Shown here: positions 33,807-64,000 of the stretch, in pieces
Layout: each line of letters starts with the position of its first letter
Position numbering within the stretch: position 1 is the first letter of the stretch
DNA from: Alphaproteobacteria bacterium
GTDB taxonomy: Bacteria; Pseudomonadota; Alphaproteobacteria; UBA828
Reading direction: 5' to 3'
Length of the DNA: 64,000 bases
NCBI GenBank assembly: GCA_965221125.1
Contig: CBDCRW010000005.1
Span: 608,001-672,000 of the forward strand
Notes under the pieces: generated by a model
What the model was told of the DNA's origin: nothing
Seen by the model: the letters and a program-made list of their open reading frames with translations, nothing else
Database searches by the model: none
Translations under genes and position numbers: made by a program

Positions 33807-34951
33807 GCGTTCCCGGTCCCGACGAGCGCCGCACGCTCTCGGACGCCGAGCGGCTCGACTGGCTGCGCCTCGCCAGAAGCGAGAACGTGGGCCCCATCAC
33901 GTTTTTCGCTCTGCTGGAGCGCTTCGGCACGGCCGCCGCCGTGCTCGAGGCGCTGCCGGCGCTCGCGCGGCGCGGCGGCCGGCGGCGCCCGATCAAGGTC
34001 TGCGCGCGCACCGCGGCCGAGCGCGAAATCGAGGCGCTCAGCGCGCTCGGCGGGCGCATGATCGCACTGGTCGAACCCGCCTACCCCGAGCCGCTTGCTG
34101 CCACCGCCGACCCGCCGCCGGTGCTCAGCCTGCGGGGCCGCGCGGACCTGCTTGCGACCGACTGCATCGCGGTCGTGGGCGCGCGCAACGCGTCGGCGAA
34201 CGGACTTCACTTCGCCGAGCGCCTGGCGGCGGACCTCGGCGCGGCCGGGCTCACCGTGGTCTCGGGCATGGCGCGCGGCATCGACGCCCGCGCCCACGTC
34301 GGCGCGATGGATACCGGCACGGTGGCGATCATGGGCGGCGGCGTCGACGTGCTCTACCCCAAGGAGAACGGCTCGCTCTTCGAGCGTCTCCTGACGGAAG
34401 GCGCGGTGATCGCGGAGGCGCCGCTCGGCACCGTGCCCATGGGCCGCCACTTCCCGCGCCGCAACCGCATCATCGCGGGCCTCTCCCGCGGCGTCGTCGT
34501 GGTGGAAGGGGCGGCGCGTTCCGGCTCGCTGATCACGGCCCGGCTCGCGCTCGAGCAGGGACGCGAGGTGATGGCGGTTCCGGGCTCGCCCCTCGACCCC
34601 CGCGCGAGCGGCCCCAACCGCCTGATTCGACAGGGGGCGACACTGGTGGAGAACGCGAACGACGTGCTCGACGCGCTGGCCGAAGGCGGCCGCCCGGTGC
34701 TTGCCGAGTGCCGGCAACGGTGGCCGTCAGACGCCGCTCCCGCCGCTCCGGAGGAGGACCAAGCGCCGGCCGATGCACGCGAATCCCTGGCCCAACTGCT
34801 GGGCGCCAGCCCGGTGCCGGTGGACCTTCTGGTGCGGCAGAGCCGGTTGACTCCCGCGATGGTGGCGACCATTTTGCTGGAGCTTGAGTTGGCGGGACGC
34901 CTGGAGAGACACTCGGGCAACCGCGTTTCACACTCTCAGCCGGCGGCGTAG
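33803..34951 (+). CDS. dprA: DNA-processing protein DprA
   Basis: VVGARNAS, VSGMARGID, FPRRNRII, SGSLITA. Confidence 0.95.
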   Translation: MSVPGPDERRTLSDAERLDWLRLARSENVGPITFFALLERFGTAAAVLEALPALARRGGRRRPIKVCARTAAEREIEALSALGGRMIALVEPAYPEPLAATADPPPVLSLRGRADLLATDCIAVVGARNASANGLHFAERLAADLGAAGLTVVSGMARGIDARAHVGAMDTGTVAIMGGGVDVLYPKENGSLFERLLTEGAVIAEAPLGTVPMGRHFPRRNRIIAGLSRGVVVVEGAARSGSLITARLALEQGREVMAVPGSPLDPRASGPNRLIRQGATLVENANDVLDALAEGGRPVLAECRQRWPSDAAPAAPEEDQAPADARESLAQLLGASPVPVDLLVRQSRLTPAMVATILLELELAGRLERHSGNRVSHSQPAA

Positions 34952-59913: not shown

Positions 59914-60870
59914 ATGGCGACCGTACTGCAGACCGACTTCGCCTGGCCCGACGTCGGCATCGAGCGCGACGTGATCGAGGGCGCCGGCCACAGGCTGGTC
60001 ACGGGCCCCTCGGAGCCGAGCCCGGCGGCGGCGGTCGAGGCCATGGTGGCGGAGCACGACCCCGCGGCCATCCTCACCTGCTGGGCGGAGATCTCGGCCG
60101 AGGCGATCCGCCGCCCGACGGCGCTCAGGATCGTGCAGCGGCTGGGCGTCGGGCTCGACAACATCGCCATGGAGGCGGCGACGGCGCGCGGCGCCTGGGT
60201 CGCCAACGTGCCGGACTACTGCGTGGAGGAGGTCTCGGACCATGCGGTGGCGCTGGCCTATGCGTGGTTCCGCGGCATCGCGTCGTTCGACCACGCGGTG
60301 AAGGGCGGCCGGTGGGACCCCTCCGGCGCCAGGCTCCGGCGCGGGGCTGCGCTCACCGCCGGCATCCTGGGGCTCGGCCGCATCGGCCGCTGCACCGCGC
60401 GCAAGCTGGATGCGCTGGGCATGACCGTGCTCGGCCACGACATCGCCGCCCCGCCGGAGAGCGTGCCGGCGCGCATGGTCGGGCTCGACGCGCTCTCTGC
60501 GGACTCCGACATCGTCATCGTCCACCTGCCGCTCACCGACGAGACGCACCACCTGGTGGACGCGGCCTTCCTCGCCCGCGTGAAGCCCGGCGCCTTCCTC
60601 ATCAACGTGAGCCGGGGGCCGGTGGTCGACAACGATGCGCTGATCGCCGCCCTGGAAGCGGGCCATCTCGCGGGCGCCGGCCTCGACGTGGTGGAGGGCG
60701 AGCCGAGCCCGCCCGCCGCGCTCGTGGCGCGGGCGGACGTGATCGCGACGCCGCACGTGGCCTTCTCCTCCGACGCGTCGCTGGCGGAACTGAGACGGCG
60801 CGGCGCGGAGGAGGTGGTGCGCGTGCTGGCCGGCGCGCGGCCCGAGAATCCCTGCAACGACGTCGGCTGA
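59914..60870 (+). CDS. D-2-hydroxyacid dehydrogenase (CtBP-like)
   Basis: GVGLDNI, NVPDYCVEEV, GLGRIG, INVSRG, TPHVAF. Confidence 0.92.
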   Translation: MATVLQTDFAWPDVGIERDVIEGAGHRLVTGPSEPSPAAAVEAMVAEHDPAAILTCWAEISAEAIRRPTALRIVQRLGVGLDNIAMEAATARGAWVANVPDYCVEEVSDHAVALAYAWFRGIASFDHAVKGGRWDPSGARLRRGAALTAGILGLGRIGRCTARKLDALGMTVLGHDIAAPPESVPARMVGLDALSADSDIVIVHLPLTDETHHLVDAAFLARVKPGAFLINVSRGPVVDNDALIAALEAGHLAGAGLDVVEGEPSPPAALVARADVIATPHVAFSSDASLAELRRRGAEEVVRVLAGARPENPCNDVG

Positions 60871-60925
60871 CGATGGGCGGCACGCAGCGCCTCGCCGCTC
60901 CGGCCGGGCGCGAAGGGAGGGGGCG

Positions 60926-61324
60926 GTGAGCGCGCCGAAACCCGCCTTCGTCGATCAGGCGACCTTGGAGTGGGAGAGCAGTGAAGACTCCGGCCTCGCA
61001 ACCGGCAAGGGCATTCGCTGGAAGCTGCTGGTCGCGGGCGAGCGGACCGGGAGCGAGGGCCTCGTCACCGGCATCGCCGAGATCGCACCCGGCGGGCAGC
61101 TCATGCGCCACCACCACGAGCCGGCGGAGACCTATTACATCGTGAGCGGCCGGGGCGAGATGGAGATCGAGGGCCGCGTCGAGGCCGTGGGGCCGGGCAG
61201 CGCGGTCTACATCCCGCCGGATGCCCGCCACACGGTGCGCTGCACCGGCGCGGAGCCGCTGGTCTTCGTCTTCTCCTTCCCGCGCGACCGCTTCGACCGG
61301 ATCGTCTACCACTTCGATCATTAG
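60926..61324 (+). CDS. Cupin protein, DddK/DddW-like DMSP lyase candidate
   Basis: GIRWKLL, AEIAPGG, H62-x-H64-x3-E68-x-Y70, H102, FPRDRF, Y128. Confidence 0.7.
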   Translation: MSAPKPAFVDQATLEWESSEDSGLATGKGIRWKLLVAGERTGSEGLVTGIAEIAPGGQLMRHHHEPAETYYIVSGRGEMEIEGRVEAVGPGSAVYIPPDARHTVRCTGAEPLVFVFSFPRDRFDRIVYHFDH

Positions 61325-61347
61325 AGCGGTCCCGTTTTGCACGCAAA

Positions 61348-61530
61348 GGCCTTAAAGCGGCCTATTCCGGTCTATTCCGGTCCAAAGTGGCCCAAAGTGG
61401 CCCAAGGTGGTCCAAACGAGCGGCCCAAAGTGGTCCAAAGTGGCCCAAGGTGGCCCGCCGCAAGCGGCCCAAAGTGGCCCAAAGTGACCCAAGGCGGCTC
61501 ATGGCGGCCCAAGCCGGCCCGCCCAGGGCC
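61348..61530. repeat. Tandem array of ~17 units of a 10-bp repeat, consensus GGCCCAAAGT
   Basis: Units read directly at 61359, 61369, 61379, 61389, 61399, 61422, 61432, 61442, 61466, 61476, 61486, 61496, 61506. Confidence 0.92.
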
Positions 61531-61544
61531 GCCACCCGCCGGCC

Positions 61545-62168
61545 TCATTCGCCCTCCGCATCCTGCGCCTTCAATCGCCAATAGGCCTCGGCGACGGCTT
61601 CTTCGCCCGCGACCGGATCGTAGATGCCCCAGTGGCCCTCCACCGCCGCGCGGATGTGGGCGACGGCGTCGGGGGAGAGCCCCTTCTTCTGCTCCTCCGC
61701 AGACCTGGGCCAGCCTGCAAGCGGGCCGGCGCCGCGCGGGGCAGGGTTGCGCGCGGCCGCGCTCTCGCGTTCCGCACCGCTCTTCTCGGCGGACTCGATG
61801 CGCTGCAGGGCGAGCGCGAGCGTGGCGATCTGCTCGACGGGGGGCGGCTTCTCTTCGCGGCGGAGGTCGCCGGCGGCGCGCGTGGCGAGGGCTCTCACCG
61901 TCTCGCGCGCGTACCGCCCGGTTCCGCCCTCGGGCTGCTCGCCGAGCGACGCGAGCCAGAAATCGGCAAGCCCCTGGTCCTCCCGCCAGTCCCGCAGCCT
62001 CTCGCGCGCCCCCTTGACGTAGCGGACGACGGCCGAGCGCGAGCAGGTCCCGCCGTTCGCGCGGATGCGCCGGACGATCTCGTCGATGGTGGCGCCCTCG
62101 ACGATCGCCTTGTGCACCCGCGCCAGGATCGGCGGCGGCAACAGCTCGAGGGACGAGCGCCCGGCCAT
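61545..62168 (-). CDS. Phage Mu gp27-like (DUF3486) protein, 207 aa, orphan
   Basis: MAGRSSLELLPP...TIDEI...SRSAVVRY HTH-like N-terminus, helical body, KKGLSPDAVAHIR C-terminal motif; hidden at the end of the 690-aa track ORF. Confidence 0.75.
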   Translation of the reverse strand: MAGRSSLELLPPPILARVHKAIVEGATIDEIVRRIRANGGTCSRSAVVRYVKGARERLRDWREDQGLADFWLASLGEQPEGGTGRYARETVRALATRAAGDLRREEKPPPVEQIATLALALQRIESAEKSGAERESAAARNPAPRGAGPLAGWPRSAEEQKKGLSPDAVAHIRAAVEGHWGIYDPVAGEEAVAEAYWRLKAQDAEGE

Positions 62169-62444
62169 CAGCCGGCTTTCCGGGGCCGCTCCGGCCCCAC
62201 CGTCCCGGCACGGCGGTGGCCTGCTGTCCCGGAAGGGCGATGGTCTGCGCGCTGCATCCGCACAGCCTGCCCCCACCAAGCGGCCCCGTGCACCGCACCA
62301 TGGTCCGGGTCCCCGCCCGCGGCTGAACAGTGGCGGGGTTGATTCGGCGGGGCGAAAGCGGTCACCATGCCCGCACTCGTCGAGCCCCGCACCGCCGCTG
62401 GCGCAGGGCCGCGCCATACGACCCAACTGCAGGGAGAGCAACCG

Positions 62445-63662
62445 ATGACCGAACGCAAGGGCAAGCACAGCAAGCATCTCTACTTTCCGCTTTCGCGGCG
62501 CCACTTCATCAAGGGCGCGGCGGCAGGCGCGGTGATCGCCGGCGCGCCGGCGGTGCTGCAGGGGCTCACGCGCCGGGCCAAGGCGCAGGAGAAGGGCGTG
62601 ATCCGCATGCTCTTCACGGCGCCCACCATGATCCCGGGCGACTGGACCCGCTTCGAGGCCGACACCGGCCTCAAGATGGAAGACACGGTGATCAAGGACG
62701 ATCCCGGCATCTTCCTCACCGAGGTCGAGGTCAACGACGCCGGCGACCGCTTCGACCTGATCTCGACGCTCTCCGGCGTGGAGCAGAGCCTGATCGACGG
62801 CGGCTACATCATCCAGGCCGAGACCGGCGCGGTCCCCAACTGGGGCGGCATGCCGGACAGCATCAAGGGCATCCCCTACCTGGTGCGTGACCTGAGCCCG
62901 GACGGCGGCAACGTCTGGGGCCTGCCGCTCGCCATGAACGCGGACAGCTTCGGCTATCTGCCGGCCAAGCTGAACGAGCCGCGCCCGCCGGAGGAGGCCT
63001 CCTGGGCGCTGGTCTTCGAGAGCGAGAAGACCATGGGCCGGTCCTCCACCGGCGACAACTACATCTACCTCTGGGAGGCGCTGGCCTACCTCAAGAACAG
63101 CGGGCAGCTCGAGGTGGCGGACATCCTCAACCCGTCGCCGGACGAGGCGCGGGCGACCGCCGACTTCCTCATCGAGCGCAAGCAGGCCGGGCAGTTCCGC
63201 AACTTCTGGAAGATTTTTGACGACCAGGTCGCCGACATGAAGAACGGCGAGGTCGACGCCATCCGCTGCTGGGAGCCGGCGGTGCGCGAGGCCAACAAGG
63301 CTGGCGGCGACTGGGTCTACGCCAACGCCAAGGAGTTCTACACCAAGTGGCTCCACGCGGCGTACATCCCGTCCCAGGTCGAGGATCGCGGCAATCTCGA
63401 GGAGGTCTACACCGCCCTCGACTGGTTCCTGAGCGGCGGCTACGCCTCCACCATCACGCCGCTGCGCGGCTACCTCAACGGCCGGCCGGACCTCGCGGTC
63501 GAGTACGCCGAGCGCAACGAGATCGGCGACATCTCGGCCGACATGGACGCCGCCCAGGCGAAGATGAAGCACAAGTTCGCCAAGGAGGATTTCTGGTTCA
63601 GCGCGGTGCCCGAGCACCTGCAGGAGATGCAGGCGCAGATGGACCGCGTGCTCAACGCGTAA
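62445..63662 (+). CDS. Orphan ABC substrate-binding protein (PotD/PotF-like), Tat signal
   Basis: GGAGAG RBS; SRRHFIKG; NADSFGY; WEPAV. Confidence 0.8.
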   Translation: MTERKGKHSKHLYFPLSRRHFIKGAAAGAVIAGAPAVLQGLTRRAKAQEKGVIRMLFTAPTMIPGDWTRFEADTGLKMEDTVIKDDPGIFLTEVEVNDAGDRFDLISTLSGVEQSLIDGGYIIQAETGAVPNWGGMPDSIKGIPYLVRDLSPDGGNVWGLPLAMNADSFGYLPAKLNEPRPPEEASWALVFESEKTMGRSSTGDNYIYLWEALAYLKNSGQLEVADILNPSPDEARATADFLIERKQAGQFRNFWKIFDDQVADMKNGEVDAIRCWEPAVREANKAGGDWVYANAKEFYTKWLHAAYIPSQVEDRGNLEEVYTALDWFLSGGYASTITPLRGYLNGRPDLAVEYAERNEIGDISADMDAAQAKMKHKFAKEDFWFSAVPEHLQEMQAQMDRVLNA

Positions 63663-63730: not shown

Positions 63731-64000
63731 GGCGTCTCGTCCATGAAGTTGCACCGCGACCTGAAGGTGACGCAGAAGACCGCGTGGTTCATGCTGCGCC
63801 GTATCCGCGAGGCTTGGTCCGCAGAGAGCGAATCGCTATTCTCGGGGCCGGTCGAGGCCGATGAGACGTACATGGGCGGTCGGCGCGCAAACATGTCGAA
63901 GGCCAAGCGCAAAACGCTGAGCGGACGCGGCGCGGTCGGAAAGAGGCCGTGATCGGAAAGCGCCTGTGCTACGCGGACCTCATCGCCGACAACGGGTTGT
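63731..64000 (+). pseudogene. IS1595-family transposase remnant
   Basis: GVSSMKLHRDLKVTQKTAWFMLRRIREA, VEADETYMGG, then frameshift and jump to terminal GKRLCYADLIADNGL. Confidence 0.85.

Follow-up and report, generated by a model that had tools for sequence, protein, structure and literature searches.

Multi-copy modules joining a Mu gp27-like gene to a 10-bp repeat array in an alphaproteobacterial genus, and their putative role in phage-like packaging

A 64,000-nucleotide stretch of the genome of an Alphaproteobacteria bacterium (assembly GCA_965221125.1, contig CBDCRW010000005.1, positions 608,001 to 672,000; the whole stretch is called the window below) carries a gene of the Mu gp27 (DUF3486) family, followed beyond its stop codon by an array of 10-bp units. 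The intact minus-strand open reading frame (ORF) beside a repeat array that the initial annotation described is confirmed, the frame being open and the array having a period of 10 by Tandem Repeats Finder. The gene is uncoupled from the Mu-type large terminase (TerL) that is normally next in line. Gene and array belong to a multi-copy module, most of whose copies are short, retaining both ends and the array and having lost the gene. The feature in the window is one of the copies that have kept the gene, in a family of ~1-kb modules specific to the genus. Judged from sequence, there is about an even chance that the modules combine a small terminase (TerS) with a packaging-site (pac) array and direct a domesticated, Mu-derived packaging machinery resembling a gene transfer agent (GTA) to many chromosomal sites. 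The family, with some 35 copies, probably marks sites on the chromosome for packaging by a conserved, host-resident system of phage-like particles.

A module in many copies

The genome that contains the window (G000; 4.58 Mb in 7 contigs, 92% complete) was searched by BLAST with window positions 60900-62700 as the query. The gene had at first been called solitary; it is one of three gene-bearing copies in all, the others lying at C5:247420-248341 (85% identity) and C6:145352-146112 (75%), and by motif census the family has 35 arrays, each with at least three units. The end palindrome stands on the expected side of 32 of these 35 arrays, at a distance of 148-301 bp in 29 short copies and of 777-829 bp in the three with the gene. 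A stricter screen places an array on the gene side of the palindrome at 28 of 53 sites and on the other side at none (0/53). Arrays with a lag of 10 number 13 genome-wide, all of them from the module family, and lags of 7-13 otherwise give 0-4. The gene-less copies are ~330 bp long, and 14 that were aligned share one identical deletion junction, joining window position ~61527 to ~62130; what they retain is the array, ~13 codons from the start of the gene, the leader and both module ends, beyond which they are no longer similar. Three unit types occur in G000: GG[CT]CCAAAGT, GGCACAAAGT and GCCGAGAYAA. A sponge-metagenome DNA run with relatives of the stretch has a depth of 180-410 on array and palindrome while the flanks stand at ~10; it also yields contigs with short-form joints at 61521-62130/62151.

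In the window the module extends from about 61323 to 62300 (the stretch repeated in BLAST runs from ~61322 to ~62310), in the order 16-bp palindrome, ~100-nt leader, gp27-type gene, 10-bp array and small subterminal hairpin (Table 1). The array, with 11 in-register copies by repeat search, ends ~25 bp from the stop codon of the gene, rather than the ~15 bp first estimated. It is built of two CGGYCTATTC units, three runs of GG[CT]CCAARGT with 13-14-nt spacers, and then degenerate units. A common CTT core lies beside a variable part in all units, and each has a short A/T patch, phased at 10 bp against a background of ~70% GC; A/T patches in such phase are the usual signature of protein-wrapping DNA. 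A 17-nt pattern made from two array units is found seven times in the window against an expectation of 0.01, a count reached in none of 100 shuffles. At the array side the module ends in a conserved subterminal block (consensus GCCGTTTTGCACGGAAGGGCNTTAAAGCGG) that includes the small hairpin. The copies found by BLAST in the same genome begin at window positions 61322-61325, and the 14 aligned short copies lose their similarity upstream of this block. At the other end is the palindrome, CCGSACCATGGTGCGG (consensus form CCG[GC]ACCATGGTGCGG, extended by GTGCAC), and the flanks of the copies diverge immediately past it. In 37 of 41 loci, drawn from nine genomes, the gp27 start lies 84-165 bp downstream of the palindrome, a putative shared operator or promoter element.

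Two further structures accompany the palindrome. A stem-loop, CCCGCGGCTGAACAGTGGCGGG, followed in other copies by CAGGTTGATGCCATGAAAAACACCCCC, is often found just outside the palindrome end; it also occurs in G000 at C3:520560, C5:418370, C7:384100, C7:652100 and C4:869640. The stem-loop that adjoins the palindrome in the window is probably a separate small repeat or a preferred target, outside the module. A second conserved dyad (e.g. GATCGGGCCATGATGAACGCCCGATC, with an ATG in its loop) lies ~35-45 nt downstream of the palindrome. It is seen in the leaders of portal, lysis and GCCGAGAYAA-type short copies (L057:4870-4900; L073:2870-2900), and may represent either a hairpin in the leader RNA or another site for a protein.

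Comparison of filled and empty sites among genomes of the genus shows the modules to be polymorphic. The intergenic site of the window is empty in G020 and G019, where sequence from upstream of the binding-protein gene follows the cupin stop codon within ~10-18 bp (the joint meets the window at ~62330). At the same site G014 has a ~330-bp short copy, oppositely oriented and from another subfamily (unit GGGATTAAGT). G000 is itself empty where G013 and G019 have gene-bearing copies, and at C7:824 kb it holds a stump of palindrome plus leader only, at a position where G007, G004 and G014 have elements. Some module positions are old: of the two other gene-bearing copies of G000, L002 shares its site with seven other genomes and L003 with G004. 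The 29 short gene-less copies and the empty sites fit the early suggestion of a small non-autonomous mobile unit. The palindrome was also considered as an XerCD/dif-like or attC-like recombination site, for which there is no support because the empty sites are without it.

A selfish transposable element family, with derivatives like miniature inverted-repeat transposable elements (MITEs), would likewise be expected to have numerous copies with definite ends, sites without a copy, and insertions in either orientation at one intergenic site. The gp27-like protein would then serve to bind the ends or in transposition, or would be cargo; a transposase would recognise the array and the palindrome as ends; and the link to packaging would amount to Mu-like ancestry only. 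The amplification of one deletion derivative to more than 13 copies points the same way, as do the many matches at contig ends of draft genomes and the DNA run, with its joined short form and its depth on array and palindrome far above the flanks. However, no copy holds a transposase or recombinase; the gene-bearing copies have the gp27-like ORF alone, which is all-helical and belongs to a family (PF11985) of non-enzymatic phage proteins. Neither a target-site duplication nor clear terminal inverted repeats were seen in the 14 aligned copies or in three filled/empty comparisons, the intergenic flanks being too diverged for base-exact junctions. The sole feature that the ends share is a TGCACGG heptamer ~15 nt inside each, and only one end has the array. 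As for the Mu-type DDE transposon that is abundant in the genome, its TGT... ends are unrelated to those of the modules and it comes with a 5-bp duplication. A transposable family also leaves unexplained two observations described below, the same palindrome at the same distance on the TerL, portal, lysis and head genes, and a C-terminal protein tail that is specific to each genome. We consider this explanation, the main rival to packaging, unlikely.

The genome has 20 Mu-transposase-like matches, all outside the window. A ~4.7-kb transposon is present in 20 copies with identical Mu-transpos_C matches (G000:C6:422690-427320, which is L074, plus 19 sites). It encodes a 211-aa ORF, a transposase with HTH_32, rve and Mu-transpos_C domains, and an AAA_22/TniB-like ATPase. 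Its ends are TGTTG..., the duplication of 5 bp is CCATC, and one copy splits a short gp27-family element. The TniA/TniB-like transposon found by the palindrome at C6:422.6 kb was tried as a mobiliser of the modules and rejected, as it is an independent insertion with its own CCATC duplication and TGTTG... ends.

Protein and array

The protein, P0001, matches the Pfam family PF11985 (Phage_Mu_Gp27) with an E value of 1.4e-19 and 71.5 bits (cut-off 28) over profile positions 2-171 of 173, and the whole-genome profile scan returns the same match; the DUF3486 assignment of the initial annotation is thus borne out. It also matches PHROG 426, annotated (not assayed) as "terminase small subunit", with an E value of 9.9e-22. 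The AlphaFold model has a mean pLDDT of 73, with blocks 11-60 at 93-97. It consists of a confident N-terminal three-helix unit like a helix-turn-helix (HTH), long central helices and a C-terminal tail.

Seventeen of the 20 other genomes of the genus have between 1 and 15 matches to P0001, many of them at contig ends, and none of four genomes from the other genera of the family has any. Among 400 sampled other genomes of the class, 33 have a PF11985 match, one or two each. Searching a genome-contig collection with P0001 gives six loci, five from the same genus and the sixth a relative at 31% identity. The architecture of gene, array and palindrome recurs in about 40 loci of nine genomes. Control loci of the PF11985 family from these other alphaproteobacteria are arranged differently: in 27 of 28, a long ORF starts -35 to +7 nt from the gp27 stop codon, and the 28th is cut after 287 nt. 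The downstream ORFs start with LLPYQ...W, as does the Terminase_6C-positive protein of G000 (an identification by motif, not by hidden Markov model). None of the 28 control loci has a lag-10 array (maximum 0.47, median 0.38), and none has the palindrome. It follows that the canonical coupling of gp27 to TerL has been replaced in the genus by a coupling of gp27 to the array, which does occupy the position of the large terminase, as the initial annotation had proposed.

Array type tracks protein clade. All nine proteins at least 56% identical to P0001 are followed by arrays of type T1, with CCACYTTGG-type units (this count leaves out L003, L005 and the fragment L043). Among the 30 proteins of the 35-48% clade, 18 are followed by CCCACTTAA-type units and the rest by other variants. 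The four unit types are never found upstream of the gene (0/40). The L003 protein is 67%, 44% and 97% identical to P0001 over residues 1-57, 58-145 and 146-207, respectively, and the arrays of the two differ, the L003 units being GGCTTATCTC. For the copy at the L002 site, comparison with the orthologue found there in another genome gives 75% identity at the N-terminus and only 38% in the tail. The C-terminal tail, that is, is homogenised within a genome. From this pattern of identity, the array is matched by the N-terminal and central part of the protein, and the genome by the tail; array and N-terminus covary around an identical C-terminal tail, in agreement with the idea of a coupled module of protein and array. 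A tail that contacts a partner peculiar to each genome, TerL for example, would be expected to behave in this way. The 11 coding sequences examined are all intact, with dN/dS (Nei-Gojobori) of 0.13-0.42 in close orthologue pairs. A divergent gp27 subgroup (L041, L052 and L054, from G004 and G014) has proteins of 245-290 aa with a long proline-rich C-terminal extension ending in ...LWPTDPPFCPSEWSGPG, and sometimes a nested second palindrome before the array.

A DNA-binding-like N-terminal unit modelled with high confidence, direct-repeat arrays beside the gene, and TetR-like regulators among the weak matches to its fold could instead describe a regulator, in which the gp27-like HTH protein acts on a Mu-like regulon as transcription factor or roadblock, with the arrays as operator or titration sites. 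The positions of the arrays argue otherwise, as they lie downstream of the gene and never upstream (0/40 by unit type and 0/53 in the stricter screen), with none beside the other promoters of the regulon. It is difficult to see operators in some 30 gene-less arrays scattered over unrelated intergenic regions, and genes of the family canonically accompany the Mu-type large terminase, as in the controls just described. A purely regulatory role is therefore improbable.

A resident Mu-like gene set and the packaging reading

The initial annotation reported no large terminase, portal, capsid or Mu transposase. This is true of the window, which has no Terminase_6C, Portal_Mu or head-cluster match; as a statement that the organism has no prophage it is not supported, since the only such matches of the genome, to a Mu-type TerL, a portal and head genes, are on another contig. 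The single TerL of G000 (C7:344504-345916), found by Terminase_6C alone (the Terminase_6N and TerL_nuclease models have no match in the genome), is preceded by the palindrome in a variant form. The palindrome also precedes the Portal_Mu gene, a lysis cassette (a DUF5675 gene with a holin-like gene), and a head/tail cluster comprising scaffold, cement protein, Phage_cap_E capsid, Phage_tail_S and tape measure. In each of four other genomes examined it stands before TerL and before the portal gene, and in four of four further genomes it lies 130-200 nt upstream of the scaffold gene, with flanks that diverge exactly at the palindrome. TerL is 76-91% identical in 16 of 20 genomes of the genus, and the capsid, a single-copy gene, is 92-97% identical in 16 of 20. 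The TerL-portal locus adjoins pyruvate carboxylase in G000, G004, G014 and G020, and TerL and capsid loci are far apart in those genomes for which both coordinates are known. The complete genomes with no gp27 match (G012, G016 and G017) are also without TerL and capsid; G007, 67% complete, is missing only TerL. As in GTAs, structural and packaging genes are conserved in the host lineage and spread over several loci. It would appear that these Mu-derived genes represent a domesticated, GTA-like system in which one operator governs scattered loci. The early suggestion that the gp27-like protein is a domesticated factor for GTA or phage packaging of host DNA is in keeping with the shared palindrome and with the presence, in the same genomes, of a conserved Mu-type terminase, portal and head set.

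Several minor features were also seen. In G000, G004 and G014, not in G020, a 449-aa RTX-repeat gene (HemolysinCabind, Peptidase_M10_C; G000:C7:342955-344304, or L057:4956-6305, minus strand) separates TerL from the palindrome-portal unit and has the look of a moron-like insertion. Between the palindrome variant and the TerL start (G000:C7:345950-346080) is a dispersed palindromic repeat rich in CCCCCTCCGCCC...GGGGGAGGGGG and GGAGGAGAGGG, which is also seen in several flanks of other copies. Palindromes precede two other ORFs, at G000:C7:846769 and C7:190520; one of these ORFs has 303 aa and is of unknown family (MATKRQIKANRRNAQKST...), the other has 144 aa with a GIY-YIG-like motif and lies in a low-GC (58%) patch. 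Both are possible candidates for further members of the regulon.

If the palindrome is a common operator, the modules and the TerL, portal, head and lysis genes that it leads would all be expressed together. The TerS-like protein would oligomerise and wrap its own array by means of its N-terminal and central part, which fits the array because its A/T patches are phased at 10 bp. The C-terminal tail would recruit the resident large terminase, and headful packaging of the adjacent chromosome would start at the array. Gene-less copies would be pac sites served in trans, and the arrays as a whole dispersed, sequence-specific pac sites of the domesticated Mu-derived particle system. The modules may serve the host, through genome-wide transfer, or themselves, through preferential packaging of the module and its flanks; both are possible.

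Several findings weigh against this packaging reading. Packaging leaves unexplained how copies arrive at new loci. The N-terminal part of the model is a confident HTH-like three-helix unit; a fold match to go with it is missing, as Foldseek against the PDB returns nothing at E <= 1e-3. Its weak rows include the small terminases of G20c and P74-26 and the Sf6 TerS (E 0.6-1.2) together with the TetR-like regulators. A wide structure search with VIA-align gives generic helical hairpins only (Z <= 7.5), a sequence profile search of the PDB with P0001 gives no match, and a complex prediction of TerL with the gp27-like protein (median 0.46, one control at 0.32) gives no verdict either way. The presumed recognition-helix region of the HTH-like unit (CSRSAV.RY.K) is nearly invariant across clades with different arrays. 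In divergent pairs dN/dS is 0.6-1.3, which is compatible with relaxed or diversifying evolution; these values are probably inflated, as GC3 of ~90% makes Nei-Gojobori dS unreliable for distant pairs. G019 has TerL and one gp27 match, and its capsid was not found with the query used. The co-occurrence of gp27, TerL and capsid may reflect one loss event, since the genomes of the genus are kin. The Mor/C-type activator family was not found in the genome, and a sigma-70 scan finds no promoter-like site near the palindrome. The portal gene of G000 (C7:342183-342824) has an in-frame loss of residues 24-186 relative to that of G020, to which it is otherwise 97% identical, and an insertion sequence (DDE_Tnp_1_4) lies in the head scaffold region of G000 (C7:425340-426680). 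With portal and scaffold genes damaged, the modules may be idle and the system decaying in G000, unless the damage consists of assembly artefacts of a 92%-complete genome.

The modules could also be anti-phage decoys or satellites of exogenous Mu-like phages. A helper's late-promoter palindrome together with a TerS would then divert the phage terminase to host arrays, aborting the phage or moving the module by lateral transduction. The pairing of TerS with pac follows the logic of the SaPI/PICI satellites. Embedded pac sites drive lateral transduction by packaging in situ (PMC8575950), and G002 and G013 have extra, more divergent copies of TerL and capsid that may be true prophages. Against this, the palindrome has no exact match in IMG/VR viral contigs, and the gp27 relatives there number two, both only 31% identical. 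The TerL, portal and capsid that match the modules are single-copy, syntenic (by pyruvate carboxylase in four genomes) and 76-97% conserved, which fits residents and not visitors. No defence-system context was seen around the modules. The dominant-negative decoy in particular, one of the early suggestions, found no specific support, and we give decoys and satellites together only a slim chance. Scarcely credible is a plain prophage relic beside a chance minisatellite, which the lack of other phage genes within the window might suggest: it is refuted by the recurrence of the architecture (about 40 loci, 35 arrays in G000) and by the absence of arrays from all 28 control loci, and the intact ORFs show no dN/dS near 1 in close pairs.

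Packaging by a resident Mu-derived system, the reading that we prefer, has likenesses to several known systems, each with clear differences. P0001 is a clear member of the presumed small terminases of the Mu gp27 family, helix-rich, of ~200 aa and with a DNA-binding-like N-terminal unit. Canonical genes of that family are translationally coupled to the large terminase, as in the controls, whereas here the gene stands alone with its own palindrome, the array follows it, and TerL is on another contig; the genus also has up to 15 copies per genome, against one or two elsewhere. In the headful phages P22, SPP1 and P1, pac sites lie in or beside the terS gene. The modules share with these phages a TerS gene with an adjacent, iterated, helically phased site, and would be expected to package flanking chromosome in situ as in lateral transduction; here, however, TerS and site are detached from a phage genome, multiplied, of several specificities, and accompanied by ~30 site-only copies. 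SaPI and PICI satellites encode their own TerS and pac site. The modules resemble them in having a small terminase of their own that would redirect the large terminase of another to the site of the element, but at ~1 kb and one ORF they are without integrase, replication, repressor or capsid-remodelling genes, they are not excised as far as seen, and their "helper" is a seemingly conserved chromosomal gene set. (SaPIs are discussed in PMC8575950.)

GTAs such as RcGTA likewise have phage-derived head, terminase and lysis genes that are lineage-conserved and distributed over several loci. RcGTA has a separate small terminase (PMC6854486). The TerS-like proteins of the modules differ in keeping a DNA-binding-like N-terminus and cognate arrays, which would mean programmed initiation sites, and the ancestry is Mu-like (Portal_Mu, gp27) and not RcGTA-like. 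The short copies, finally, recall MITEs and repeats of the repetitive extragenic palindromic (REP) type in being gene-less, ~330 bp long, intergenic, present by the dozen and polymorphic for presence or absence. They differ in that neither terminal inverted repeats nor target duplications were detected, that the unit from which they derive has no transposase, and that one end is a 10-bp array while the other is a promoter-like palindrome.

No description of such modules was found in the literature on small terminases, pac sites, lateral transduction and GTAs, those of sponge symbionts included (supplements lay outside the scope of this search). The one paper listed for DUF3486 concerns a halovirus genome. 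In GTAs and generalized transducers, packaging is thought to begin almost anywhere or at weak pseudo-pac sites. More tentatively, and against the balance of probability, this sponge-associated genus may have a domesticated Mu-derived GTA whose packaging is programmed rather than random, with a diversifying TerS set and ~30 array-only copies per genome as the first mobile pac sites ("pac-site MITEs"), which would choose the regions to be exported and could compete for the single terminase via the genome-specific tail. If this is true, many dedicated and co-evolving TerS/pac pairs would constitute a new form of control over exported DNA, and the arrays repeats of a new kind, with packaging as their apparent "purpose"; the uncharacterised DUF3486/Mu gp27 family would gain a testable DNA target. 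With three natural specificities, this one genome is a convenient system in which to study how small terminases recognise DNA. Read most conservatively, the modules are an undescribed multi-copy element family that breaks assemblies and shares a promoter-like palindrome with conserved phage-derived genes.

Other features of the window

As originally described, the module lies between a cupin gene and the gene for an ABC binding protein, which match Cupin_2 and SBP_bac_8 (Table 1).

Table 1. Positions of the module parts and neighbouring features in the window
Feature	Positions	Strand	Remarks
Cupin gene	60926-61324	+	Cupin_2 match
Array-side module end	61323-61357		starts in or just after the cupin stop codon (AGAGCGG...)
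10-bp periodic array	61358-61520	+	putative pac-like binding site of the gp27-like protein
gp27/DUF3486 small-terminase-like gene	61545-62168	minus	open, intact, 207 aa (P0001)
Conserved 5' leader, palindrome to start codon	62169-62277	minus	kept in short gene-less copies
Module end 5' of the gene	62278-62299		GTGCAC + 16-bp palindrome CCGCACCATGGTCCGG (+G)
Stem-loop repeat CCCGCGGCTGAACAGTGGCGGGG	62306-62337		adjoins palindrome end; elsewhere found without the module
ABC binding-protein gene	62367/62445-63662	+	SBP_bac_8 match, TAT signal
69-aa ORF fragment	63743-63952	+	sub-threshold DDE_Tnp_IS1595 match

The one tRNA gene found, a tRNA-Gly, is far off at 34669, so there is no tRNA attachment site at the module. 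Rfam on positions 60800-62800 gives two sub-threshold chance rows only, and a distant blastn search of a plasmid collection gives no match. Contigs from an RNA-labelled run cover 61556-61705 and 61805-61955 with 6-10 differences; they come from relatives, with DNA carry-over a possibility, and do not demonstrate transcription of the gene. The ORF fragment at the window edge scores 23.7 bits with DDE_Tnp_IS1595 (cut-off 27) and is probably a truncated IS1595-family transposase.

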